Shown: piece by piece, positions 3 to 49,014 of the stretch
Layout: each line of letters begins with the position of its first letter
Position numbering within the stretch: the stretch's first letter is position 1
Origin: a phage
Reading direction: 5' to 3' (one strand)
NCBI GenBank assembly: GCA_012439925.1
Contig: GCA_012439925.1_4519.1
Length of the DNA: 64,000 bases
Notes under the pieces: generated by a model
Seen by the model: only the letters and a program-made list of their open reading frames with translations
The model's database searches: none
What the model was told of the DNA's origin: nothing
Translations under genes and position numbers: made by a program

Positions 3-509
3 GCCGCTATAATCGAGTGGAAAAAGGAGCTCTTAAATAATAAAGACCCAAACAAAATTATTCGTCAGAATGATACCATCGGTTTAGCAATTATGCTTAT
101 CGCCGAAGGCCTGTCCAAACGTTTCAACTTTTCAGGATATACCCAGTCTTGGAAGCAGGAGATGATTGCAGATGGGATTGAAGCCTCTATTAAGGGACTT
201 CATAATTTCGACGAAACTAAGTACAATAACCCACATGCATACATAACTCGAGCTTGTTTTAATGCTTTTGTCCAACGTATCAAAAAAGAACGTAAGGAAG
301 TTGCAAAGAAATATAGTTACTTCGTTCATAATGTCTACGACAGTCATGACGATGATATGGTAGCGTTGGTAGATGAAACGTTTATTCAAGACATCTACGA
401 TAAAATGACGCATTATGAAGAATCCGCTTATAAAGCTCCTGGGGCTGAAAAGAAGGAAGTTGTTAGCGATTCACCTAGTTTGGATTTTTTATATGAGGAT
501 GACAATTGA
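3..509 (+). CDS. 55: Late-transcription sigma factor gp55 (5' truncated by window edge)
   Basis: Frame 3 reads through from the window start ([36 protein letters not shown]...) and matches remembered T4 gp55; the true start is upstream of the window. Confidence 0.9.
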
Positions 510-708
510 CATCTCTAACTACTTAGAAGAACCTTTTGACGAAGCAATCCCTTATTTGGTAAAACTGTTGGGTCGAGAATTTAAAATTAATTTTGACATC
601 GACCCTTTGAACCCACATGACGTGTCATTTTCAATAAATGGGACTCCAGTTGAGTACGAGTTCTGTATTGAAGAGGACGGACGTTTTTATTTTAATTTAA
701 TGAGATAA
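493..708 (+). CDS. Hypothetical small protein
   Basis: ORF in frame 1 overlapping the gp55 stop; ATG at 493/499 chosen over the upstream start that would overlap gp55 extensively. No recognisable motif. Confidence 0.4.
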
Positions 709-709
709 T

Positions 710-1033
710 ATGACTACCGAGATTATTGAAAATAAAGAAGCAGAAGATGCAGTAGCTAAAATGCTACAAGAAATCCAAAAGAAAAATGAAGCTGAAGCAC
801 GTAAAAAATCCGAAAAGATTCTTAAAAAGAATCGTTTTGAACTAAACCGTCTTTATGCACATGCTCAAGAAGCAGCAATTCAAAACAACTTCGAAGCTTA
901 CGAATATGCTATTAAGAAATCTCGGGATATTCTACGACAACCGTATAATGACAAGTTAATTAAAATCCAGTGGGTTACTACTCGTCAGGCTATTGAGGAC
1001 ATCATTAATGGCGCTAGTTCAAACAAAGTTTAA
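710..1033 (+). CDS. Hypothetical protein (107 aa)
   Basis: ATG ORF immediately after the previous stop; occupies the position of alpha-gt in T4. Confidence 0.5.
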   Translation: MTTEIIENKEAEDAVAKMLQEIQKKNEAEARKKSEKILKKNRFELNRLYAHAQEAAIQNNFEAYEYAIKKSRDILRQPYNDKLIKIQWVTTRQAIEDIINGASSNKV

Positions 1034-1214
1034 ACGTCTGAAGCTGAACGCAGGGTTCACCGTTAAATTGGGTGGTCCTCTTTGTGTTAAAATTTCTGAA
1101 AAGGAATATCACGACGGTTCTATTACAGAAATTTGTCCGCCTATTGTAAAGGCAGACCCAAAACAACTCGTGTGGGTTGATTCATTTCAAGTTAAGAAAT
1201 GGTGGAAACGATGA
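1008..1214 (+). CDS. Hypothetical protein
   Basis: The ORF-track start at 993 is TTG; the first ATG is at 1008 with GAGGA 9 nt upstream. Confidence 0.35.
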   Translation: MALVQTKFKRLKLNAGFTVKLGGPLCVKISEKEYHDGSITEICPPIVKADPKQLVWVDSFQVKKWWKR

Positions 1215-1253
1215 GAGAAATCGATTTAGGCATTTTCTGAGAGGTGCTTATGC

Positions 1254-1427
1254 ATGACGAACATCCCGACTTCTGAAAATTTCGATAAAATCCGTAAAGG
1301 CAAAGCAGAAAGAATGAGACGTTTTAAAGAGTCTTATGATAAAGCTAAAGCCGAAGGAACTATTACGTACAAGCCCATTCGATTTAAAAGTTCAAATGAG
1401 CCTCTGTATGGTGTACTATGTGGATAG
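1254..1427 (+). CDS. Hypothetical small protein (58 aa)
   Basis: ATG ORF below the ORF-track size cutoff, GAGG upstream, ends at a terminator hairpin. Confidence 0.35.
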   Translation: MTNIPTSENFDKIRKGKAERMRRFKESYDKAKAEGTITYKPIRFKSSNEPLYGVLCG

Positions 1428-2996: not shown

Positions 2997-4681
2997 AATC
3001 ATTTAAATTAAATCGTGTTCGTTATCAAAACATCATGTCGGTAGGTGGGAATCCTATTGATATCCAATTAGATAAAGTCCAAAAGACATTAATCACTGGT
3101 AAAAATGGCGGTGGTAAATCTACGATGTTAGAAGCCATTACTTTCGGACTTTTCGGTAAACCATTTCGTGATGTTAAGAAAGGACAAATCATTAATAGCA
3201 CGAACAAGAAAGAGCTCTTAGTTGAGCTTTGGATGGAATTCGATGATAAAAAATACTTCATTAGACGCGGCCAAAAGCCCAATATTTTCGAAATCTCCGT
3301 TGACGGTGTTCGTCTCGATGAATCTGCCAGCAGTCGTGACTTCCAAGAAGAATTTGAACGTAGCATCGGAATGTCATACGCGTCTTTTAAACAGATCGTT
3401 GTGCTTGGGACGGCAGGGTATACCCCTTTCATGGCTCTTAACACCCCTGCTCGCAGAAAGCTTGTTGAAGACTTATTAGAAGTTGGAACACTCGCTGAAA
3501 TGGATAAAATCAATAAGTCTCAAGTTCGAGAACTTAATTCCCAGGGACAAGTTCTCGATGCCAAGAAAGATGGTATTATCCAACAAATTAAGATTTATAA
3601 CGAGAATATCGAACGTCAAAAGAAATTATCTGGCGATAATGTAGCGCGTCTACAGAATATGTATGACGACCTGGCTAAAGAAGCTCGGTCATTAAAAGCA
3701 GAAATCGAAGAAGCTAATGAGCGACTACTTAATATCGTTCTTGATGAAGACCCTACTGAGGCATTCAATAAGATAGGACAAGAAGCATTCTTGATTAAAT
3801 CTAAAATTGACTCATATAACAAAGTTATTAAGATGTATCATGATGGCGGTACATGTCCTACTTGCGCATCACAGTTGCACCAGGGTGATCCTATTGTCTC
3901 TAAGATTACCGATAAGCTTCATGAATGTAATCACTCATTCGAGCAACTTACCTGCCACAGAGATAATCTGAGTGTCCTAGTGGACGAATATCGAGCTAAT
4001 GTTAAGACTAAACATGACCTTGCATCCGATATCCGTACCAAGAAACAAGCAATGATTGCCACTATTGATAAAGCTAAGAAAGTTAAAGCTGCAATAGAGC
4101 AAGCCTCGGCGGAATTTATCGACCATGCCGATGAGATAGCTTTGCTTCAAAAAGAACTTGATAAAATCATTAAAACAAAATCGGATATCGTTCTTGAAAA
4201 ATACCATCGTGGTATTATCACAGATATGTTAAAAGATTCTGGTATTAAAGGTGCTATCATTAAAAAATATGTGCCTCTGTTTAATAAGCAGATTAACCAT
4301 TATCTTAAAATCATGGAAGCTGATTACGTGTTTTCTATTGATGAAGAATTCAATGAATCTATAAAATCACGTGGCCGTGAAGATTTTAGTTATGCTTCAT
4401 TTAGTCAAGGTGAAAAAGCACGCATTGATATCGCGTTGTTGTTTACATGGCGAGATATTGCTGAAAAGGTCTCTGGTGTTAAAATCAACACTCTGATTCT
4501 TGATGAGGTTTTTGATGGGGCAGTTGATTCTGAAGCTGTTAAGGCTATAGATACCATTCTTGGAAGTTTACAAAATACTAACGTGTTCATTATTTCTCAT
4601 AGGGACCATGACCCTCAACGTTATGGACAACATTTGCAAATGAGCAAAGTTGGACGATTTACTGTAATGACTGTTTCATAA
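2993..4681 (+). CDS. 46: Recombination endonuclease subunit gp46 (Rad50/SbcC-like ATPase)
   Basis: Walker A GKNGGGKST, central CPTC zinc-hook-like motif, C-terminal LILDEVFDG; 562 aa. Confidence 0.9.
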   Translation: MKSFKLNRVRYQNIMSVGGNPIDIQLDKVQKTLITGKNGGGKSTMLEAITFGLFGKPFRDVKKGQIINSTNKKELLVELWMEFDDKKYFIRRGQKPNIFEISVDGVRLDESASSRDFQEEFERSIGMSYASFKQIVVLGTAGYTPFMALNTPARRKLVEDLLEVGTLAEMDKINKSQVRELNSQGQVLDAKKDGIIQQIKIYNENIERQKKLSGDNVARLQNMYDDLAKEARSLKAEIEEANERLLNIVLDEDPTEAFNKIGQEAFLIKSKIDSYNKVIKMYHDGGTCPTCASQLHQGDPIVSKITDKLHECNHSFEQLTCHRDNLSVLVDEYRANVKTKHDLASDIRTKKQAMIATIDKAKKVKAAIEQASAEFIDHADEIALLQKELDKIIKTKSDIVLEKYHRGIITDMLKDSGIKGAIIKKYVPLFNKQINHYLKIMEADYVFSIDEEFNESIKSRGREDFSYASFSQGEKARIDIALLFTWRDIAEKVSGVKINTLILDEVFDGAVDSEAVKAIDTILGSLQNTNVFIISHRDHDPQRYGQHLQMSKVGRFTVMTVS

Positions 4682-10889: not shown

Positions 10890-11525
10890 ATGAAAACTAC
10901 TCCTATTACTATCGCTATTGACGCAATCATAAAACAAGCTTCTTCTTTGGCCGCTATGGCCAAAGTAATTAGTCAAAACTCTGCCCGATATAATGCTATT
11001 CTTGAAACTCTTCGTCGCCCTGGACTGAGTAATTATGAAAGCCGAGTAATTATTACAGGTGTTGGTAAGAACGCTAATATCGCAACTAAAGCTTCTGAGA
11101 CATTTGCTTCACTCGGTATCCCAAGTATGTACTTGAACACCGGGCATTATTCTCACGGTGATGCAGGATTCATTGCGCCTAATGATGTGTTGATTCATAT
11201 TAGTCGTTCTGGTAAGACTGAAGAAATGATAGGCGTGGCTAAGCATCTTAAAATGATTCGTCCTCAGGTTAAACAGATTCTGTTACATTGTAACCCTGAC
11301 ATTCCGCAAGAATACGAAGCTCTTTTTGATTATACGTTCTGTACCGGCATCGCGGTAGAGGTTGATGAGAATTCTCTGGCTCCTACAATGTCCACTACAT
11401 TGTTGTTAGCGCTTATCGATACGTTCGCTATCAACCTTTCGTCTGAACGCGGATTTACCTCTAATGACTTCCTTAAGTTCCATCCAGGCGGTGCACTAGG
11501 TGCCATGTTACGAGGCGAACAATGA
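10890..11525 (+). CDS. SIS-domain sugar-phosphate isomerase (arabinose-5-phosphate isomerase KdsD/GutQ-like, no CBS domains)
   Basis: SIS signatures VIITGVGKNANIATKASETFASLG, HGDAGFIAPNDVLIHISRSGKTEE and APTMSTT align with the KdsD/KpsF N-terminal domain. Confidence 0.8.
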   Translation: MKTTPITIAIDAIIKQASSLAAMAKVISQNSARYNAILETLRRPGLSNYESRVIITGVGKNANIATKASETFASLGIPSMYLNTGHYSHGDAGFIAPNDVLIHISRSGKTEEMIGVAKHLKMIRPQVKQILLHCNPDIPQEYEALFDYTFCTGIAVEVDENSLAPTMSTTLLLALIDTFAINLSSERGFTSNDFLKFHPGGALGAMLRGEQ

Positions 11526-11665
11526 AAGCAATAACAATAGGACTTTTACTATTGATGCTTGCCATGACTATCTACTGGAGCTTAACGGCTCCAGTAATGA
11601 TTCCGACTCTTATAATCGGATGGATTATGATTGGACTACAAGCAAAGTATGAATGCTTTAACTAG
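11522..11665 (+). CDS. Small hydrophobic peptide (47 aa, predicted membrane)
   Basis: ATGA overlap with the isomerase stop; MKAITIGLLLLMLAMTIYW...; below the ORF-track cutoff. Confidence 0.3.
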   Translation: MKAITIGLLLLMLAMTIYWSLTAPVMIPTLIIGWIMIGLQAKYECFN

Positions 11666-11678
11666 AATAGTGTACAAT
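11652..11678 (+). promoter_or_regulatory. MotA-box middle promoter candidate
   Basis: TGCTTTA, 12-nt spacer, TACAAT upstream of the 11707 gene. Confidence 0.4.
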
Positions 11679-11706
11679 ACACCTACTTACCAATGAGGAC
11701 CACAAC

Positions 11707-13392
11707 ATGAAAAAAGCTGTTATTCTTGGTGCTGGACTGGCAACTCGTTTGTATCCAATAACGCACCATATTCCTAAGGTGCTTGTTAACTATAAACAAG
11801 ACACTATTCTGAGCAATTTGTATACAATTTATTCTGACCTTGGTGCAGATGAAATTATTGTAGTAGTTCATTCAAAATTTGTTGAAACTGTTCGAGCTTA
11901 TTGTGAGCAAGAAGGGTTCAATGTGACTATTCGTACAGTTGATGAAGCGTATGGTTCTGCTTATGCTCTTGCTAAATTATACAAAGATTTAGATGGCCAT
12001 AACGTAATTGTTAACTGGTGTGATATTATTCCTGATTTTGGTTCATGGTCTTGGAATGTTAACGCAATCTATGTTAAGGGTGATGAATGTCGATATAATT
12101 TCGATGGTGAAAATATCACTAACGTAGGTTCAACAGGCGGTAATGTTGTAGGAATTTATCAGTTCAAAGACTGGGAATTCTACATGGGTTCTACTGATGA
12201 GGAAATTCACGAATACTGCAAAGGACGTGATTTCGTAGAATTCCTTTACGGCAGTGCATTCAATAAATCAGAGCTTATGAATCTAATTGATTTAGGTGAT
12301 ATGCCTAAACTTGAAAAGGCTCATGAAGTTCGTGAACTGAATCGTAGTTTTAATGCAGTTGAAATTGGCGAAGAAACTGTAACTAAATTCGCGTTAACCG
12401 AACAAGGTCGAGCTCTTCAAAAAGATGAGATTTCATGGTATTTGAAAGTGAAATCAGATTCAGTTCCTCAGTTAGTTTCGGTAAATGAAAATAATTTTGA
12501 AATGGAACGCATTAAAGGTAAGCCAGCATTTGAATATATTAAATCCAAATCAAGTCTTGCTCGTCCACAAATTGTTGATGCAATTTTAGATGCACTGAAA
12601 TTCAGCACAGACACTTATTTTGTAAGTCCTGAAACTGTTCGTCGTGATTTCACTAAAGAATTCTATACGAAAGTTATTGATCGTTGTGAAAGCATTCAAC
12701 CATTGATTGATTCATTTGGTAAAATCACACATGTGAACTACACTAAGATTGGACGGCTGAAGCCAATGCTGAAACAAGCTTTAGAACACCTTATTCGTTA
12801 TCATAACCGTTCTCAGGGACAGTACTCTGTTATTCACGGTGACCCAAACTTCAGTAATACTATGATTACTGATAACGGCGAAGTCAAGTTTATCGACCCT
12901 CGTGGATATTTTGGTGAAACCAAGATTTACGGGCCAAAATTGTATGATGAAGCTAAAGTGCTTTATGCTGTTTCAGGTTATGATGAATTCAACGCTAATC
13001 CGACCTGGGGCCAGTTTACTATTGATGAAACAACTTGTAATGTGACTATTAACATCAATCCATTAGTTTACAAATATGGAAAGATGAGTTCGTTTAACGA
13101 GTATCATCATTTGGCAGTGGCAATTATCTGGATTGCATTAGGTGGTTATTTCAAGAATAATCCACTTAAAGCGGTAGCCGCATATTATAAAGGTATGGAA
13201 CTTCTAACTAAGCAATTACGTAACATGGGCCGTGTACTTCAAGACGGCTCTATTAGTTATGACGTAGCAGAACCTGTAACGGCTACTCTGATTACAAAAA
13301 ATCCTGGTAAATGGGTACTAACTGATAAAGAAACTGGTGTTTCCTATCGTCCAATCGGTGGCGATATCACTCATCAATGGGAACGAATCTAA
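11707..13392 (+). CDS. Bifunctional sugar-1-phosphate nucleotidyltransferase / anomeric sugar kinase (MurU-AmgK-like fusion)
   Basis: N-terminal MKKAVILGAGLATRLYPIT is the sugar nucleotidyltransferase G-x-G-x-R-L motif; C-terminal HGDPNFSNTMI ... KFIDPRG are the Brenner (HxDxxxxN) and DFG-like motifs of APH/choline-kinase-fold kinases. Confidence 0.75.
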   Translation: MKKAVILGAGLATRLYPITHHIPKVLVNYKQDTILSNLYTIYSDLGADEIIVVVHSKFVETVRAYCEQEGFNVTIRTVDEAYGSAYALAKLYKDLDGHNVIVNWCDIIPDFGSWSWNVNAIYVKGDECRYNFDGENITNVGSTGGNVVGIYQFKDWEFYMGSTDEEIHEYCKGRDFVEFLYGSAFNKSELMNLIDLGDMPKLEKAHEVRELNRSFNAVEIGEETVTKFALTEQGRALQKDEISWYLKVKSDSVPQLVSVNENNFEMERIKGKPAFEYIKSKSSLARPQIVDAILDALKFSTDTYFVSPETVRRDFTKEFYTKVIDRCESIQPLIDSFGKITHVNYTKIGRLKPMLKQALEHLIRYHNRSQGQYSVIHGDPNFSNTMITDNGEVKFIDPRGYFGETKIYGPKLYDEAKVLYAVSGYDEFNANPTWGQFTIDETTCNVTININPLVYKYGKMSSFNEYHHLAVAIIWIALGGYFKNNPLKAVAAYYKGMELLTKQLRNMGRVLQDGSISYDVAEPVTATLITKNPGKWVLTDKETGVSYRPIGGDITHQWERI

Positions 13393-13778
13393 TGCACCGT
13401 GTAGAAAACATGCTTAATCTTTGTTTTGATGTCGATGATTGTATAACAGAGTGGAATAACAATCGTGATTACGTGAACTTCAAACCAGACGTAGAAATGG
13501 TGACCGCCATTAATGCCCTGTATGATGCAGGGCATACCATAACGCTTTACACTGCTCGCGGTATGAAGTCAGTAGGTCCTGGACGTATAGCAATTGACAT
13601 TCTCCCAAGTCTGATTCAGAACTTGGCAAACATTGGCTTGAAGTACCATAATTTGCTAACACATAAACCAGTATATGATTGGATTATCGACGACAAAGCT
13701 ATGCGTCCTGACGAATTCAAAGCTCTTATGAATAAAGGCGAATTCGAAACATTTAAATCGTATAAACCGAATCTATAA
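13392..13778 (+). CDS. HAD-like phosphatase
   Basis: N-terminal LCFDVDDCIT (HAD motif I-like), TLYTARG, WIIDDK (motif IV-like); TAATG overlap with the upstream gene. An alternative ATG at 13377 exists. Confidence 0.55.
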   Translation: MHRVENMLNLCFDVDDCITEWNNNRDYVNFKPDVEMVTAINALYDAGHTITLYTARGMKSVGPGRIAIDILPSLIQNLANIGLKYHNLLTHKPVYDWIIDDKAMRPDEFKALMNKGEFETFKSYKPNL

Positions 13779-13835
13779 TAATTTAAGTAAGACCTGCAAA
13801 AAACCATCGCATCAATTAACGTGAGATGCAAAAAA

Positions 13836-14996
13836 ATGAATACTTTTAAAATCGGAACGAATTTTGATTTAGCTCTTCTTGATAAAATCGTAGAGCTCAA
13901 TAAAACTTATCCTAATAGCTTGATAAACGAAGTATATGGCTCTACAAGAGAAATGGCTTTTGTAGCAGCCAGACCTGATTTTAGGCTTCCTGACGTTGAC
14001 AAAAAGATGTTAGAAGACTACGTTAAACGTTGTAACGAATTAGGTATTTGCTTTAACTATACACTCAACACGATAAATCCTGGTTCAAAAAGAGAACTAG
14101 TTGAGTGGAAGAAGAAAGCTATTCAGGATTATGTTCAGTATCTTTGGTCAATAGGCGTATGGCGTATTACTATCGCTAACCCTGTTGTTATGGAAATTGT
14201 TCGTGAAGTCAATAAAGATATTGAGATTGAAGTTTCAACAATTCTACATGTTGATGCTGTAACTCAAATCAAATACTTGCATGACCAATATAACATCAAA
14301 AAGGTCTGTTGCGGAATTCATAAGAACCGTTCAGTTTCTTTCCTGAAGCGTGCAGCAGAGTTTTGCAATAAGAACAATATAATATTTGAAGTTCTTGTAA
14401 ATGAGTTCTGTTCTAATGCTGGTAAAGGGTATACAACACATTGTAGCTATCGTGACTCTTGCTATATTTTCCATAGTACTGATGTTACCGCTGATGATGC
14501 TAAATCCTTAAATGGATATCCTATGCAGCACTGTATTAAAGCTCGTGATACAGACCCATTTAACTGGCTGAGAACTCGTTTTGTTCGTCCTCAAGATTTG
14601 AAACTTTATAATGATATTGGTATCACTCAATTCAAAGTTTCAGGACGTACAGGTAGCACAGACTACATTTTGAAAGTTCTTGAAGCATACGCTTCTGAAA
14701 AGTTTGAAGGTAATTTGTTAGAACTGTGGAAGCCTTTAGAGACTATTTTCACTCTTGAAAATGAGACTGAGTTTTCACATACAGTAAATATTGAAACCTC
14801 TTTGTTAGATGGCTTTTTAGAAAAAAGGTGGTTCAGACATCCAGATTTTGATTGTGCTAATGAAATCTGTGGGTCAACGTGTACATATTGTGAAAGGTAT
14901 TATAAACGTCAATTATCTAAAAACGGGTTAGCAGAAAACTCCATATCTATTATTGATATAACTAACTCTGATGACGCTTTGAGGTACCCGGAATGA
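13836..14996 (+). CDS. U32-family protein (peptidase U32 / RlhA-TrhP-UbiU-like fold)
   Basis: Blockwise correspondence with U32 proteins (RPDFRLP ... GICFNYTLNTIN ... NPVVMEIVRE ... EVSTILHVDA ... FEVLVNEFCS) plus a C-terminal Cys cluster CANEICGSTCTYC. The ORF-track start at 13821 is GTG; the first ATG is 13836. Confidence 0.6.
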   Translation: MNTFKIGTNFDLALLDKIVELNKTYPNSLINEVYGSTREMAFVAARPDFRLPDVDKKMLEDYVKRCNELGICFNYTLNTINPGSKRELVEWKKKAIQDYVQYLWSIGVWRITIANPVVMEIVREVNKDIEIEVSTILHVDAVTQIKYLHDQYNIKKVCCGIHKNRSVSFLKRAAEFCNKNNIIFEVLVNEFCSNAGKGYTTHCSYRDSCYIFHSTDVTADDAKSLNGYPMQHCIKARDTDPFNWLRTRFVRPQDLKLYNDIGITQFKVSGRTGSTDYILKVLEAYASEKFEGNLLELWKPLETIFTLENETEFSHTVNIETSLLDGFLEKRWFRHPDFDCANEICGSTCTYCERYYKRQLSKNGLAENSISIIDITNSDDALRYPE

Positions 14997-15232
14997 TTTC
15001 TAGAAAAAGTTTTAATTATAAACTTAACGAAGAGATTTTGACTATGAAACTGAACACTAACGAACAAATTCTTAAAAAGGCCCTTATGGGCCTGTTTGAA
15101 ACCAAAGCGGCTAAAGTGATTAAAGAACCTGTTCAATTGGAATACTACACTGATGCATTCCTTCATAGTGTTCTTGGAAGTATAGATTCTGAAGCTTTAC
15201 GGTATATCAACACTGCCAAGAAATTCAAATAA
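14993..15232 (+). CDS. Hypothetical protein
   Basis: ATGA overlap with the U32 gene; GAGG SD. Confidence 0.45.
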   Translation: MISRKSFNYKLNEEILTMKLNTNEQILKKALMGLFETKAAKVIKEPVQLEYYTDAFLHSVLGSIDSEALRYINTAKKFK

Positions 15233-15256
15233 GCTTTACGAATTGAGTATATAATA
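15230..15256 (+). promoter_or_regulatory. Middle-promoter-like element upstream of gene 42
   Basis: AAGCTTTAC (one mismatch to the MotA box), 11-nt spacer, TATAAT. Confidence 0.35.
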
Positions 15257-15274
15257 AATTGTATTGAGGTAAAC

Positions 15275-15991
15275 ATGGGAAAACATAACACAATGAAATA
15301 TATCAAAGCCGCAGATTTTCAAACCGCATTTAAAGCAGTCAATCGTGAAATTTTAGAAAACCCGGAATTCGTAACTGATTCTCGTATTGGACGTTGTAAT
15401 GAAATTGGGTCTATGACAGTAGTTGTTGACACTCCATCATCATTCAAAATGACCGACCCACGTATTAACCGCATCTCTTATGAATATGCCGAAGACTTCT
15501 GGAAGTTTATGATTTCTGGTGGTACCAACGCAGAAGAAGCGTTTAAGGCATATCCTAATGTCGCTAAATTTATTTCTAAACCAAAATCAGATGTTTTGCC
15601 GGCGAACTTCAACACTTTCTATGGTCCTCGCATTGCGGCCCAATTACCAACTCTTCTAAAAGAACTTAAAGAAAAACCTAACTCTCGAAGAGTTGTGTTC
15701 CAAATTCTAGAAAGTTCTGATCAGGCTTTGCTTGATTCGGACGAAACACTTGAATATCCATGTACTGACTCAGTAACTTATTATATTCGTGATGGTAAGC
15801 TTTATACCCACTGTCATATGCGTTCTCAGAACTGTGCTGTTGTTATGCAGTTGGATTTTTATCTCCAAGGAAAATTACTTCATTATATCGCTAACGAATG
15901 CGGTGTAGAAGTTGGTGATTATACTCATACCATGGTAAGTGCCCATGTGTTTGAACGTGATTTTGATTATGTTAAAGGATTCCTTGACTAA
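15275..15991 (+). CDS. 42: dCMP hydroxymethylase gp42 (thymidylate-synthase fold)
   Basis: TS-superfamily core PCTDSVTYYIRDGKLYTHCHMRSQNCAVVMQLDFYLQ (catalytic Cys and the RS(Q/N) block); 238 aa; located between 43 and uvsX as in T4. Confidence 0.7.
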   Translation: MGKHNTMKYIKAADFQTAFKAVNREILENPEFVTDSRIGRCNEIGSMTVVVDTPSSFKMTDPRINRISYEYAEDFWKFMISGGTNAEEAFKAYPNVAKFISKPKSDVLPANFNTFYGPRIAAQLPTLLKELKEKPNSRRVVFQILESSDQALLDSDETLEYPCTDSVTYYIRDGKLYTHCHMRSQNCAVVMQLDFYLQGKLLHYIANECGVEVGDYTHTMVSAHVFERDFDYVKGFLD

Positions 15992-16890
15992 TGGCTATTT
16001 TCCGCGTACCTATCTTGAGTATGCGGTCTTATGAAACTGGACAGTATGCTATCCTTAAGGATGGCAACTTCCAACTTCATTTGCACCGTGCTAATCCGGG
16101 TGATGCGATTACATATCCACGTAATGCATCTGATATTAAAGAATGCGAACGTCTTTTCCCAGAATTTAAGTTTGTTCCATTATGGTATAAAGATAACGCG
16201 TATAACACTCGTAAATATTTCTGGACTGAAAATGAATTTGTAGTTGATTCATTAATTGATTATTATGATTGTGATTTTCTAATCACAGATATCACCGGTT
16301 ATGGCGGCGCTTTTGATGTGGAATTCAATTTCAATATCACTGCAGACCCTAATAAACCACGCTTTTATATTGATGAATTCTTAAAAACCGATATGTTGTC
16401 AGTTAATCGTTCACTTCAAACTACTGTGTTGAATGAACGTCAAAAGGAAGTGCTGGTTAACGCAGGTGCAGATGGTAATAAGATTATTGTAACGCAGAAA
16501 GTTATACGTCCTTCCATCATGCAGCGTCTTGTAGGTGATTTGGCTCCTATTCATCTAGATGGTATTTTTCATCCATTTCGAATTAGTGACCCATGTTATC
16601 GTTTTGAACAAGTGGTTGAATGTGCAATTCAATTAGGTCAACCGCTTTATATAACTGATCCAAATAATAGCTTTGACAGAAATAAGTATCCTGAAGAAGC
16701 GCTGATTCGAATTTTTAAACCAACTAAAACTGAGTACTATCAAATTCTTAAAGGACGTCCGAAGATTCAATATTTCGAAAATCCTGAAGAAGTATTCCAT
16801 CCAGGTCTTGGTGAGTTCATCTACTTTAATGCTTTAATTTCTTCACCGTATAATATACCTAAATACGAAGATGTCGTAATCGAGGAATAA
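15991..16890 (+). CDS. Hypothetical protein (299 aa) at the beta-gt locus
   Basis: TAATG overlap with gene 42; occupies the position of beta-glucosyltransferase in T4 but has no similarity to it that I can see. Confidence 0.6.
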   Translation: MAIFRVPILSMRSYETGQYAILKDGNFQLHLHRANPGDAITYPRNASDIKECERLFPEFKFVPLWYKDNAYNTRKYFWTENEFVVDSLIDYYDCDFLITDITGYGGAFDVEFNFNITADPNKPRFYIDEFLKTDMLSVNRSLQTTVLNERQKEVLVNAGADGNKIIVTQKVIRPSIMQRLVGDLAPIHLDGIFHPFRISDPCYRFEQVVECAIQLGQPLYITDPNNSFDRNKYPEEALIRIFKPTKTEYYQILKGRPKIQYFENPEEVFHPGLGEFIYFNALISSPYNIPKYEDVVIEE

Positions 16891-16891
16891 A

Positions 16892-17440
16892 ATGGCTAAA
16901 ATTATTTTAGTAGACGGCCCAGATAATGCTGGTAAAACAACTTTCATTAATGACATAATGGAAATTAGTGAAAGATATGTAAAGATTGATTTCCCTAAAC
17001 GAACAGTTGATGGACGTTTCGATGTTAAGTCTCGAAATGAAGTTGGTTGTTTCGAAACGATGTTGAATTATTTAGACCCTACTAAGATTTATCTGTTAGA
17101 CCGTGGATATATTAGTAACTGGGTTTATGGACGTATTCGACAAGATGCGGACTCGGTTCTTGACGTTTATGAACAGGACTATGTTCGTCTTTGCCAAAAC
17201 CATGATGTGTTCACAATTATTTTAACACGTAACGAAATGACTGAAAGTTTTGAAGACGACCTTATTACTTTGTCTTCATTCGGTTTTAATACAGTCATTT
17301 CACATTTTGAAGAGTTTGCAATTCATAACAAAATCCAAACGTATCAATTACTTAATCATGATGGTTCTAACAAAGTTATAGGATTTAATGCAAGCGAACG
17401 TAATAATTTGATTACAGAAATCATCAAATGGGCTCGTTAA
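16892..17440 (+). CDS. Thymidylate-kinase-like P-loop nucleotide kinase
   Basis: P-loop IILVDGPDNAGKTT and LLDRGYISNWVYG resembling the TMPK DR(Y/H)xxSxxAY motif. Confidence 0.5.
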   Translation: MAKIILVDGPDNAGKTTFINDIMEISERYVKIDFPKRTVDGRFDVKSRNEVGCFETMLNYLDPTKIYLLDRGYISNWVYGRIRQDADSVLDVYEQDYVRLCQNHDVFTIILTRNEMTESFEDDLITLSSFGFNTVISHFEEFAIHNKIQTYQLLNHDGSNKVIGFNASERNNLITEIIKWAR

Positions 17441-35774: not shown

Positions 35775-35791
35775 GGGCTTCGGCCCTTTTT
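35774..35791 (+). terminator. Terminator GGGC-TTCG-GCCC + T5
   Basis: Hairpin followed by TTTTT. Confidence 0.6.
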
Positions 35792-35816
35792 GCTTTAGAT
35801 TTCGGATGATAGAATA
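35789..35816 (+). promoter_or_regulatory. MotA-dependent middle promoter upstream of gene 39
   Basis: TGCTTTA, 12 nt, TAGAAT; the block CGGATGATAGAAT is identical to the one upstream of gene 47. Confidence 0.55.
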
Positions 35817-35837
35817 CCTTCATAACGAGGAGACAAC

Positions 35838-37697: not shown

Positions 37698-38798
37698 ATG
37701 AAAGTTATGTTTATCCCATCTCGCGCAGTCCCATTTAACCCAGAACGTGTACAAGGTGGTCTTGAAGCAGTACATTTAAATGTGTTGAAATATCTTGTGT
37801 CCATCGGTGCTGATATTGATTATATCGGCTTTGATAATGACACATTTGGTGATTGGAAGGTTAATCATCATCCTGTTGGTCATCTGACTAAATTCAGTCT
37901 AGGTATGAGTTATACTATGGCTCGTAAGATTGTTGAACTAGCCGGCATTAATGAGTACGATTTCGTTGTTACAATGGAACCGACCAAACTAACCGTTCAG
38001 GCAATTAAAGACGCAGGTCTTTCTAAAGTTCATAAGAATTTTATGGCAACACCATTTGAACCAGTATCTCGTGGCATTGTTCAAATTTGGGACCAGACTA
38101 TTCAAATTCATAAGAACGGTGGTAAGAGTTATGCTCCTACTAAAGCCTTCCGTGAATTTGAACGTAAATATTGTTATATGACTTCAGGTCTGACTGACAA
38201 AATTGATTATGATTATTGGCGAGCAAATCCGTTGTTTGAAGCCGAAGATTATCCGGTTATTTGTTTGAATGAGAAACCTGAAGTTCTTCCGGCGACTGAT
38301 CTGATTATTAGTGCACAACGTTATGACACTAAAATGCGTCGTACTGATGTTGCTCTTGAAGCGATTAAAGCACTAGGCGAAAATGGTATTGGTTATTGTC
38401 CTAGTAAATGGGCACCACCGGCTAAGTATCCTGTTATTATTGATGCTCCACACGGTGAAATCATGGAACGTCTTAAAACAGCTAAAGCACTTATCAATAC
38501 GTGTCCTGACACGGGTACGGTAGAGAATAGTTCTATTGAAGCCATCTCTAAAGGTGTCCCTGTAATTCAGTTAGTTTTTAAGGATTATCCTCATGCGACA
38601 TTCGAATACGACCCAGATACTGTGCGTGTAGAAATTGATTCCTCTACTCCTAAGAAAGAAGTAGTTGCGCTTTACACAAAAGCTGTATTAGAATTCACTG
38701 ACACATACGAAGCTCGAGTTAAACGTGCTGAAGCAGTATGGAAGAAGTATAACCGAGATGCAGTTGTTGCGATGTGGGATAAAATCTTCACAGCGTAA
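37698..38798 (+). CDS. GT-B-fold glycosyltransferase (candidate DNA sugar transferase)
   Basis: N-terminal MKVMFIPSRAVPF ... GG.E and C-terminal TGTVENSSIEAISKGVPVIQ resemble GT4-type donor-binding motifs; T4 has no such gene between 39 and rIIA. Confidence 0.6.
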   Translation: MKVMFIPSRAVPFNPERVQGGLEAVHLNVLKYLVSIGADIDYIGFDNDTFGDWKVNHHPVGHLTKFSLGMSYTMARKIVELAGINEYDFVVTMEPTKLTVQAIKDAGLSKVHKNFMATPFEPVSRGIVQIWDQTIQIHKNGGKSYAPTKAFREFERKYCYMTSGLTDKIDYDYWRANPLFEAEDYPVICLNEKPEVLPATDLIISAQRYDTKMRRTDVALEAIKALGENGIGYCPSKWAPPAKYPVIIDAPHGEIMERLKTAKALINTCPDTGTVENSSIEAISKGVPVIQLVFKDYPHATFEYDPDTVRVEIDSSTPKKEVVALYTKAVLEFTDTYEARVKRAEAVWKKYNRDAVVAMWDKIFTA

Positions 38799-46247: not shown

Positions 46248-46880
46248 ATGTCTAAAGTTACTTACATCATCAAAGCTTCTGAAAACGCTCTGAATGAAAA
46301 AACTGCTGCAATAATGGTTTATATCATTAAGAACAACTTCACCACTGCTGCCAATGTCCGTGAAGCTCTGGAAGCAGAATACAGTGCATCAGTTGTTAAC
46401 TCTAACATTGGTGTATTGATTAAGAAAGGTTTAGTCGAAAAATCCGGTGATGGACTTGTAGCAACAGGCGAAGCAATGGATATTATCCAAAAAGCTGCAG
46501 ACCTCTTTGCCCAAGAAAATGCTCCAGAACTTCTTCAGAAACGTAACACCAGAAAAGCACGTGGAGTTACTCCTGAAATGCATGAATTAGCAAACTTTGT
46601 TTTTGAAAATATTAAAGATAAAGTTGAAGTTAAAGAAATTGGTGAAAACCGTAGTAACTTAGAAGTTCGATTCGCTAAACGAGTTCTAGGCATTCGCCAA
46701 ATTGAAATTCGACGAGATGGCGCTCTTAGAATCTTTGCATACAACATGTCAGAAACTGAATCAAAGCTGTTTACTTCTCTTGAAAATGATGTTAAGATTA
46801 AGATCGGTGGTAAATATACTTACATTGACTTCCCTAATGTGTCTAAAGAAATCATTACCCTTGTAACTAACGTACTGTGA
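46248..46880 (+). CDS. motA: Middle-transcription activator MotA
   Basis: MSKVTYIIKAS ... NSNIGVLIKKGLVEKSGDGL matches remembered T4 MotA; 210 aa. Confidence 0.85.
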   Translation: MSKVTYIIKASENALNEKTAAIMVYIIKNNFTTAANVREALEAEYSASVVNSNIGVLIKKGLVEKSGDGLVATGEAMDIIQKAADLFAQENAPELLQKRNTRKARGVTPEMHELANFVFENIKDKVEVKEIGENRSNLEVRFAKRVLGIRQIEIRRDGALRIFAYNMSETESKLFTSLENDVKIKIGGKYTYIDFPNVSKEIITLVTNVL

Positions 46881-46890
46881 GGAATACATA

Positions 46891-47220
46891 ATGAATAAGC
46901 TGAATATTATTAACGAACTTCGTAAATGTGCAGAACCTACTCAGGAAGGATGGGATATTTGGTACCACGGGGCTTATTTAGGGACAATTGTAAAGATTAA
47001 AGCAGGCCAATATACGGTTATTCGTGAAAATAATGACGCGCCATTTGGCCTTCGTAAAAACTACATGGCAGCGATCAGTTCATTTGTTGATGCAGCTTAC
47101 GAAATCTATAAAGAAGATTATAAAGAATATCAGCAGTCACAACCGGTTATTCGTTCGATTGGTGTAAATAAACAAGCACAAAAATCTATTTGGCAACGTA
47201 TTAAGGAATGGTTTAAATGA
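46891..47220 (+). CDS. Hypothetical protein
   Basis: ATG with GAGGA SD. Confidence 0.5.
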
Positions 47221-47678
47221 AAACTTTTAAAGAACGTTTAGCTCTGTTAGATAAAGCTTTGTCGCGTGAGACTCCGGAAAGTCTGGCTGCTAAATTAGCT
47301 TCTTACGGTGGTGAATATACAGAACAAAATGTTTTAGACGAAGTTCCTGAAATCTGTTGGCAGACTCTGTATTGGGATGAAAACCAAAAGTATCAACGAC
47401 GAATTGTCTGCGCAGCCAACCGTTTTAAATTAAAAGATGGACGAACTCTTATTATTCCAGGTGCTCGTCATTATTCTAAAGATATGGCAGAAGTTTTAGA
47501 TGTAGTTAAACCTCAATTAGTTACTCAACAAGTTTGTGATGATGACCAAGGGTTTATTGACCAATATAGTAATTATTGGACACGTGAAGAAGCAATGATT
47601 ATTGCAACTTACGCTGGACAAGTACGTATTGAACGTGGTGGTAATGAAAAAGAACTTTACTCTGAGGACCTTTACTAA
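47217..47678 (+). CDS. Hypothetical protein
   Basis: ATGA overlap. Confidence 0.5.
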
Positions 47679-47959
47679 TGAATCTTAAACAACTCCAGAT
47701 TGATGCTATTGAAGCCCACATTAATCATATCAAACGCCTGAATGTTATGATGGAAGAAAATTATGGTATGTATGCTAATCAGCCTGGTTGGGATGCTTTA
47801 GATCATCCTTATTTGGTTAATTTATGTAAAGGTGATACGTTAGCAATTATTCGTGATGGGTTAAAACCTTTCTTGCGCGACATGTATATTAAAATGAACG
47901 AAGAAATTATTAGCTCGTTGCAATATCAATTAAGGAAATTAGATGATGAGAATAATTGA
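47678..47959 (+). CDS. Hypothetical protein
   Basis: TAATG overlap. Confidence 0.45.
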   Translation: MNLKQLQIDAIEAHINHIKRLNVMMEENYGMYANQPGWDALDHPYLVNLCKGDTLAIIRDGLKPFLRDMYIKMNEEIISSLQYQLRKLDDENN

Positions 47960-48170
47960 TTCTAAAGCAGATTATTTTAATTCTGTTAATGATAAGAATA
48001 AAGCTTTAATTCGCCACTTTATTACTGAGATGGGTTATACTGACTCTAAAGATTTGAAAGAACACATCATCGAATGTTCTGTGGCTAAAAAGTTTTCTTT
48101 TACCGATAAATGTTTAAATGAGGTTATAAATCATTATGAACAATCTTGTAGCAAAACACGATTTCAATAA
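47943..48170 (+). CDS. Hypothetical protein
   Basis: Overlapping ATG ORF. Confidence 0.4.
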   Translation: MMRIIDSKADYFNSVNDKNKALIRHFITEMGYTDSKDLKEHIIECSVAKKFSFTDKCLNEVINHYEQSCSKTRFQ

Positions 48171-48244
48171 GGCTTCTGTCCATAAGGACAAGAAGAAAGT
48201 AGAACTCCAATCTAAACGTAAACAAAAACACAAGGGTAAAGACT

Positions 48245-48532
48245 ATGTTTACTAAAATCAAAGAGAATCCTGCTACTGAACTGGTTATTCGCTGCGAAGA
48301 ACTTGTAGAGCTCTATCACGTCAACAAGAACGTATATCGTAGTGTTGTTGCAGATATGGCAGATGAAGTTTGTTCTCGAATTCCATTTAGTGTTGATTTT
48401 GATCGTACAGCACCGGGAGAAATCACTATCGTCTTTGGTTCTGACTATACTGAAGAACGGGCTCTTAATGCCCTAGAATATGAAATGTCATTCTTTGACA
48501 TACAGGACTACATTGATAGTTATAAGGAATGA
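48245..48532 (+). CDS. Hypothetical acidic protein (Arn-like candidate)
   Basis: Strongly acidic 95-aa product close to asiA, where T4 carries arn; sequence identity not verified. Confidence 0.45.
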   Translation: MFTKIKENPATELVIRCEELVELYHVNKNVYRSVVADMADEVCSRIPFSVDFDRTAPGEITIVFGSDYTEERALNALEYEMSFFDIQDYIDSYKE

Positions 48533-48533
48533 T

Positions 48534-48695
48534 ATGAGCCATAATCTGCAGAACGTAGTAGAGGCAGAACGTGAGCGTGAGGCTTTAGTCTATAATGAAC
48601 TATTAGCCACGTTCTTGGCCTTACACTCGTATGAACAGGAAGACTACACTGATTACGTTAAAAGTGTAGAAAAAGCTGTTTACAATCAACACTGA
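48534..48695 (+). CDS. Hypothetical small protein
   Basis: ATG after AAGGA; alternative to the overlapping 48480 ORF. Confidence 0.3.
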   Translation: MSHNLQNVVEAEREREALVYNELLATFLALHSYEQEDYTDYVKSVEKAVYNQH

Positions 48696-48720
48696 TAATG
48701 GTACTATACTCATATCAACA
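48678..48720 (+). promoter_or_regulatory. Early promoter upstream of asiA
   Basis: GTTTACA, 17 nt, TGgTACTAT, then ACTCATATCAACA. Confidence 0.5.
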
Positions 48721-48741
48721 AAATGGAATGAATAAAACGTT

Positions 48742-49014
48742 ATGAATAAAGATATTGAAATTGTACGTGAAATTATTACGGTTGCTTCTATTTTGATTAA
48801 ATTCTCTAGGGAAGATATTGTTGAAGACCGAGCAAATTTCATCGGATTCTTGAATGAGATTGGAATTAAAAAAGATGGTCGGCAGCTAAATCAGAATTCG
48901 TTCAGAAAACTAATTACAAATTTAACTGCCGAAGAAAAGAAAACACTGATTAGTGAATTCAATGAAGGTTTTGAAAATATTTATCGCCATTTGACGATGT
49001 ATTCTAACAACTAA
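48742..49014 (+). CDS. asiA: Anti-sigma-70 factor AsiA
   Basis: REIITVASILIKFSREDIVE ... matches remembered T4 AsiA; 90 aa. Confidence 0.85.
   Translation: MNKDIEIVREIITVASILIKFSREDIVEDRANFIGFLNEIGIKKDGRQLNQNSFRKLITNLTAEEKKTLISEFNEGFENIYRHLTMYSNN

Follow-up and report, generated by a model that had tools for sequence, protein, structure and literature searches.

In phage T4 (AF158101), the interval between genes 55 and 47 reads 55 > a-gt.5 > a-gt.4 > a-gt.3 > a-gt.2 > mobB > a-gt > 47.1 > 47. For RB69, Thomas et al. (2018, PMC6024577) reported arabinose on the DNA and no homologue of a-gt, b-gt or ba-gt. According to Lee et al. (2026, PMC13326640), the RB69 base is mono- and di-arabinosylated 5-hydroxycytosine, made through gp48, a ThyA-like 5hodCMP synthase; gp46:47 and gp3 were proposed as the arabinosyltransferases, and gp50-55 make up a UDP-arabinose pathway. 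The RB69 GenBank record of 2003 (AY303349) names the same four small genes, a-gt.2 to a-gt.5, as 'similar to T4', and another Mosigvirus record also labels them a-gt.5 to a-gt.2. A further described system is that of the PeSL cassettes of T4-type phages (Arbiol et al. 2010, PMC2839356; Comeau et al. 2014, PMC4122927).

The DNA analysed here is a phage stretch of 64,000 nucleotides, referred to as the window. Judged by its sequence, its source is an RB69-like T-even phage (Mosigvirus). In a megablast search with positions 400-1600, 170 phage records were matched, 144 of them over the full length and essentially all of these at 95-99.5% identity; the closest record was that of Escherichia phage p000y, and the named genera among the annotated relatives were all Mosigvirus or RB69-like. 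RB69 proteins matched the window by tblastn at 89-100% identity, and the RB69 gene order (gene 55, 47, 46, 43, the ORF055c-045c cluster, uvsX, 56, 60plus39, ORF003c, rIIA) is kept. We hold with high confidence that the interval between genes 55 and 47 is normal for an RB69-like Mosigvirus, that its four open reading frames (ORFs) are the orthologues of a-gt.5, a-gt.4, a-gt.3 and a-gt.2, and that the a-gt site is empty. The locus is ordinary for such a phage and already annotated, and its context has been published. Its features are the following.

Positions 3-509, + strand: 3' part of gene 55 (late sigma factor gp55); by tblastn, T4 gp55 92%, RB69 gp55 99%.
Positions 493-708, + strand: a-gt.5 orthologue, 71 aa, acidic, pI 4.3; Pfam DUF5491 / PHROG 1169; T4 a-gt.5 47%, E 1e-14; RB69 a-gt.5 100%.
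Positions 710-1033, + strand: a-gt.4 orthologue, 107 aa, basic, pI 9.1; Pfam DUF2654 / PHROG 951; T4 a-gt.4 58%, E 2.5e-32.
Positions 1008-1214, + strand: a-gt.3 orthologue, 68 aa, basic, pI 9.75; PHROG 1648; T4 a-gt.3 71%, E 1.5e-29.
Positions 1254-1427, + strand: a-gt.2 orthologue, 57 aa, basic, pI 9.8; Pfam DUF5486 / PHROG 2140; T4 a-gt.2 76%, E 3e-24.
Positions 1426-1450, + strand: intrinsic-terminator-like hairpin AGGAACTC-TTCG-GAGTTCCT followed by a T-run, from a terminator scan.
Positions 1450-1473, + strand: predicted MotA-type middle promoter for gene 47, from sequence reading and a custom scan.
Positions 1497-2516, + strand: gene 47 (Mre11/SbcD-like recombination nuclease subunit); T4 gp47 76%, RB69 gp47 100%.

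The initial annotation had correctly placed four small ORFs in 493-1427, followed by a terminator and a middle promoter upstream of gene 47; the latter correspond to the predicted hairpin and MotA box/-10 listed above. It had called the ORFs unknown, which does not hold: besides carrying names in the RB69 record since 2003, three of them belong to Pfam families. The T4 small proteins gave one-to-one tblastn matches to the four window ORFs, and the RB69 counterparts are 95-100% identical. Pfam scores lie well above the gathering thresholds (DUF5491 for a-gt.5, 49.4 bits against 27; DUF2654 for a-gt.4, 96.6 against 25; DUF5486 for a-gt.2, 97.3 against 27), and a-gt.3, which has no Pfam family, matches the PHROG 1648 profile at E 5.9e-34 over residues 2-68. 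The likeness to T4 extends to gene order, to the position directly after gene 55 and to the overlaps: gene 55 and a-gt.5 share 17 nt, as in T4, a gap of 1 nt separates a-gt.5 from a-gt.4, and a-gt.4 and a-gt.3 overlap by 26 nt. In the order a-gt.5/.4/.3/.2, the proteins are 72/105/67/63 aa long in T4 and 71/107/68/57 aa in the window, where a-gt.2 lacks about six N-terminal residues; there is otherwise no difference of substance. The start of a-gt.5 is ambiguous, 493 agreeing with T4 and 499 being the RB69 annotation, and a-gt.3 is 68 aa long from its ATG or 73 aa from an upstream TTG, with a ribosome-binding site, GAGGA, at 995-999.

An alpha-glucosyltransferase had been said to be missing between genes 55 and 47, and this was borne out. 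The best tblastn match of T4 a-gt to the 64 kb had E=2.5, and none fell within 493-1496; searches of the window with T4 mobB and 47.1 returned nothing. A degraded a-gt in the 55-47 interval, which the initial annotation had named as the finding that would overturn its reading, is ruled out by these three translated searches. There is also no room for a degraded 400-aa gene, because the interval contains only 39 nt (1215-1253) and 69 nt (1428-1496) of non-coding DNA. Thus, the interval offers neither similarity to a T4-type DNA alpha-glucosyltransferase (GT-B fold, about 400 aa) nor coding space for one, and at E<=1 Pfam assigned the four proteins to DUF families only and to no glycosyltransferase family. 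Relative to T4, all that is missing is mobB, a-gt and 47.1 (about 2.2 kb in T4), with a 69-nt spacer in their place. The claimed absence of beta-gt was likewise confirmed, T4 b-gt having no tblastn match in the window. The Rfam scan of the whole window gave zero family matches.

The spacer holds one predicted terminator hairpin and one predicted MotA-type middle promoter. The hairpin proper occupies 1426-1445, has a UUCG loop and starts inside the a-gt.2 stop codon; it is the positional counterpart of the hairpins that follow a-gt.2 in T4, RB51 and Dhakavirus. In T4 middle promoters a MotA box, (a/t)(a/t)TGCTT(t/c)A, precedes a TAnnnT -10 element by 11-13 bp, and there is no -35 element. The window site fits this description, with TTTGCTTTA ending at 1456 (box TGCTTTA, 1450-1456), an 11-nt spacer and the -10 element TAGAAT at 1468-1473, and a sigma-70 promoter scan did not call it. 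Orthologues of MotA (46248-46868, 51% identity) and AsiA (48742-49008, 75% identity) are encoded in the window. Promoter and terminator activity at 1426-1473 is predicted purely from consensus. On the favoured reading, the four small early genes form a conserved string directly downstream of, and translationally linked to, gene 55; their transcription unit would end at the hairpin overlapping the a-gt.2 stop codon, beyond which the MotA-dependent middle promoter would restart transcription into genes 47 and 46.

T4 has two such modules. The one 3' of a-gt.2 reads GGATAGGAGC-TTCG-GCTCC TATAT TGCTTTATAAA TTTTTTGGTAAAAT and is followed by mobB; the one 3' of a-gt reads AAAGGGC-TTCG-GCCCTTT A GCTTTATA CGGAGTTTGATATAAT and is followed by 47.1/47. 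The single module of the window, GGATAGGAACTC-TTCG-GAGTTCC TTTTT TGCTTTATAAA CGGATGATAGAAT, agrees with the first T4 module as far as the MotA box and with the second beyond it, so that the window spacer reads like a fusion of the two modules that flank the T4 cassette. What the two T4 modules share is a core of only about 8-12 nt around GCTTTATA, plus similar hairpins. The RB69 module is that of the window except for one base in the -10 element.

The same pattern is seen in other relatives. In the glucosylating phages T4, RB51 and the Klebsiella Jiaodavirus phiA85 there is one module on each side of a-gt, whereas a-gt is absent and the module single in the window, RB69 and the Dhakavirus phage dhabil. 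In RB51, a-gt is present without mobB, the homing endonuclease gene that T4 has in addition, and the module after a-gt.2 leads straight into a-gt; in phiA85, a-gt lies in the same slot with a hairpin, a TGCT(T/A)T box and a -10 element on either side; dhabil has the same four small genes. The Gelderlandvirus CGG4-1 carries an unannotated 47.1 homologue. Of the surroundings of the T4 mobB + a-gt + 47.1 cassette, the window keeps both flanking genes, a-gt.2 and 47, as well as a module akin to the two in T4; the cassette itself, including 47.1, is absent without remnant. From these alignments we read alpha-gt as a self-contained cassette with a terminator/middle-promoter module repeated on either side of it; the window shows the site unoccupied.

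Such a site could have arisen by recombination between two near-identical modules, with loss of the cassette; alternatively, it could represent the state before the cassette was inserted. Recombination between modules at the a-gt site, which we infer rather than observe, is plausible. As in PeSL cassettes, a terminator stem-loop is joined to a promoter, and copies of the module lie on both sides of a segment that some relatives have and others lack. The window stem AGGA...TCCT also fits the stem form AGNA...TCNT described for the T-even pair (PMC2839356; PMC4122927). On the other hand, the PeSL promoter is an early one with a sigma-70 -35 element, whereas the window promoter has a MotA box, which puts it in the middle class, and no TTGACA-like -35; a strong sigma-70-like early promoter, a third PeSL feature, is missing from the window module. 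The a-gt cassette might exemplify how a DNA-modification gene enters and leaves T-even genomes when terminator/middle-promoter modules recombine. Repeated modules bounding the a-gt slot would offer a simple route for gain or loss of such a gene.

The genes that account for the missing glucosyltransferases are found elsewhere in the window.

Positions 10890-17440, + strand: RB69-type cluster for arabinosylated 5-hydroxycytosine (ORF055c to ORF045c); tblastn 89-100% to RB69; functions proposed or shown in PMC13326640.
Positions 37698-38798, + strand: RB69 ORF003c-type GT-B glycosyltransferase, a proposed second arabinosyltransferase; 98.6% to RB69 ORF003c (PMC6024577, PMC13326640).

The position of the cluster, flanked by genes 43 and uvsX, is where T4 has gene 42 and beta-gt. 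All RB69 pathway genes were found; ORF046c/047c and ORF052c/053c each form one continuous ORF in the window. T4 gp42 shares only 25% identity with the gp48 orthologue of the window. The chemistry of arabinosylation is taken from the RB69 literature. We take the DNA of the window phage to be protected in this way, by arabinosylated 5-hydroxycytosine, so that the a-gt cassette is dispensable. The absence of both glucosyltransferases is thus already explained by RB69-type arabinosylation. A wholesale swap of the glycosylation machinery, as asserted in the initial annotation, stands genome-wide, where it has already been published; at the 55-47 locus nothing was swapped in, the replacement glycosylation genes lying 9-37 kb away and the a-gt slot being empty.

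The small genes themselves are widely conserved. Among 50,697 phage records searched by tblastn, homologues were found in 902 (a-gt.5), 1443 (a-gt.4), 1007 (a-gt.3) and 816 (a-gt.2), and each of the four families spans many phage genera; those of a-gt.4 extend to RB49 and to Acinetobacter, Vibrio and Aeromonas phages. In RB49, Jiaodavirus, Gelderlandvirus, Dhakavirus and Aeh1, gene 55 is followed by an a-gt.5 homologue. The order 55 > a-gt.5 > a-gt.4 holds in T4, RB49, phiA85, dhabil and Aeh1, and the same five phages keep a 55/a-gt.5 overlap of 14-17 nt. The start of a-gt.4 lies 1 nt past the a-gt.5 stop in T4, RB49, phiA85, dhabil and the window, with a 4-nt overlap in Aeh1. The overlap and the close a-gt.4 start, kept across these phages, argue for co-expression with gp55, and we infer that a-gt.5 and a-gt.4 are made together with it. 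Against their T4 counterparts, the four ORFs show pN of 0.12-0.33 and pS of 0.46-0.79, similar to gene 47, and dN/dS is ~0.12-0.19 for a-gt.2, a-gt.3 and a-gt.4 compared with 0.10 for gene 47. The four genes are under purifying selection.

The AF2 model of a-gt.4 (pLDDT 91) is all-helical, with helices at residues 3-40, 42-57, 61-75 and 81-105, and fold comparison returned no specific fold relative. Residues E44, R47, L48, H51, Y64, Y66, K70, R72, Q77-P78-Y79 and W88 are conserved, E44, R47, L48, Y66, K70 and R72 being invariant in 56 homologues. The model of a-gt.5, built from three near-identical sequences, reached pLDDT 61 and was left out of inference. A sequence search of solved structures with all four proteins gave no match below E about 0.7. 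Our working view, which draws on their size and charge and on the helical model without enzyme-like fold relatives, is that the four may be small non-enzymatic binding proteins, produced early alongside gp55. In the literature searched under the names a-gt.2 to a-gt.5, their DUFs, locus tags and UniProt accessions, they appear in supplementary tables only, with no mention in a main text. For T4 a-gt.2 to a-gt.5, the expression check asked for in the initial annotation has in effect been made: their RNAs were classed as early and their proteins were detected (Wolfram-Schauerte 2022 supplement). In the CRISPRi-ART screen of T4, all four were 'Not Fit' at gene level and gene 55 was 'Fit'. One a-gt.4 guide was 'Semi-Fit', with plaques roughly 2-3 times smaller (first row, 112/80/69 against 256/256/293 for the non-targeting control), and a-gt.4 appears to contribute slightly to fitness. 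From these reports, the T4 orthologues are largely dispensable, with little or no fitness cost on knock-down.

The tie to gene 55 raises the alternative that gp55-dependent late transcription, or the switch to it, uses a-gt.5 and a-gt.4, or perhaps all four proteins, as accessory factors. Such a role would explain the family-wide translational coupling to gene 55, given that order and overlaps hold from T4 to Aeh1; the conserved basic and aromatic residues of a-gt.4 (R47, H51, Y64, Y66, K70, R72, W88) lie on a confident helical model, and the single guide that shrank T4 plaques points the same way. Yet the gene-level 'Not Fit' scores beside a 'Fit' gene 55 speak against it, and gene order kept without a functional link is common in T4-like core blocks. 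Moreover, gp55, gp33, gp45 and the clamp loader suffice for late transcription to be reconstituted in vitro. We consider this role unlikely, though it is the strongest of the alternatives. At slightly longer odds still, the trio 55 > a-gt.5 > a-gt.4 might encode unrecognized partners of the late sigma factor or of a replication-coupled late switch, with a-gt.4 as a small helical adaptor whose loss causes a mild fitness defect. Tied to gene 55 across Straboviridae and uncharacterised, a-gt.5 and a-gt.4 are reasonable targets among the conserved unknowns of T4-like phages.

Very improbable, in our judgement, is the reading of the initial annotation, in which small accessory ORFs, possibly with anti-defence roles, were newly acquired and took the place of alpha-gt at its locus, accumulating in a hyperplastic region. 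It can point to the absence of a-gt, to gene content that varies between genera at the a-gt.2/47 boundary, and to proteins that are small and whose T4 orthologues are expressed early, like many anti-defence proteins. However, the alignment with T4 that it called for shows the same four genes, in the same order, upstream of mobB and a-gt in a phage that also has a-gt, so they cannot be said to occupy its locus. Their families, in 816-1443 phage genomes, include RB49, which has no modified cytosine; purifying selection on the genes, and the near-identity of the region across the 144 full-length records, do not fit hyperplastic accumulation, and an anti-defence role gained no support from the analysis. 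The ORFs are conserved neighbours of a-gt and not its replacement.

Next to no likelihood attaches to the view that the interval is one long untranslated or regulatory region with spurious ORFs: the ORFs are short and of no known function, but they are real genes because pN lies well below pS against T4, their Pfam and PHROG scores are well above threshold, there are ribosome-binding sites and coupled starts, the proteins of the T4 orthologues have been detected, and no Rfam family lies in the window.

Two database entries touching these families were set aside. Residues 9-42 of a-gt.2 match PHROG 17354, labelled 'head maturation protease'; we judge this an annotation artefact of a tiny family, since the protein's own families score far better. 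A 171-aa fusion (P0069, on a 703-bp contig), which joins a Cys-phosphatase-like N-terminus to the C-terminal half of T4 a-gt.4, is likely an assembly or gene-call chimera.

Mobile endonuclease genes insert recurrently at the boundary between a-gt.4 and gene 47, as follows from the arrangement in phage RB49, where a gene of this kind occupies the same variable slot as mobB and a-gt of T4:

RB49 3283-3837, HNH/AP2 homing-endonuclease-like gene, between a-gt.4 and 47

The RB49 genome is without annotated a-gt.3 and a-gt.2. An ORF lacking annotation, MITYLGILSLLTGLYLFGRACWVGFFSTPDGFISMILILSAMTALDI, is found at approximately 4096-4240 in Salmonella phage CGG4-1 (NC_031065). This ORF is clearly homologous to the membrane protein 47.1 of T4 and, like its T4 counterpart, overlaps the start of gene 47. 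Since 47.1 is present in CGG4-1 but missing from the window, RB69 and Dhakavirus, its distribution indicates that the gene probably predates the T4 lineage and would have been lost in the phage studied here.

P0069 is a predicted protein of 171 aa encoded by a 703-bp ENA metagenome contig. In it a Cys-phosphatase-like N-terminus (HCDAGKSRS motif, Pfam PF00782) is followed by the C-terminal half of T4 a-gt.4; the protein comes either from a T4-like phage that has recombined or from a chimeric assembly. The start of a-gt.5 in the window is ambiguous: ATG 493 gives MRMTIDIS, which aligns with T4 MRLTINLS and is the start chosen in most records, whereas the start in the RB69 record corresponds to position 499 and gives a protein of 69 aa.

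Arn, the McrBC inhibitor of T4, is encoded between asiA and motA. T4 Arn gave no tblastn match at E<=1e-3 across the whole window, which includes the corresponding interval:

46868-48742, interval between the motA and asiA orthologues

In the arabinosylation genes, two ORFs that are split in the RB69 record are each unbroken in the window:

11707-13392, single ORF (561 aa) matching the RB69 ORF053c/052c pair
15991-16890, single ORF (299 aa) matching the RB69 ORF047c/046c pair

Published statements attribute both splits in the RB69 record to sequencing errors, and the intact ORFs agree with that account.

Finally, a second composite module, a predicted terminator joined to a predicted middle promoter, immediately precedes 60plus39, the fused topoisomerase gene:

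35791-35837, + strand, hairpin AAGGGC-TTCG-GCCCTT, TGCTTTA, 12 nt, TAGAAT

It is the sole further perfect combination of hairpin, MotA box and -10 site on the + strand of the window.
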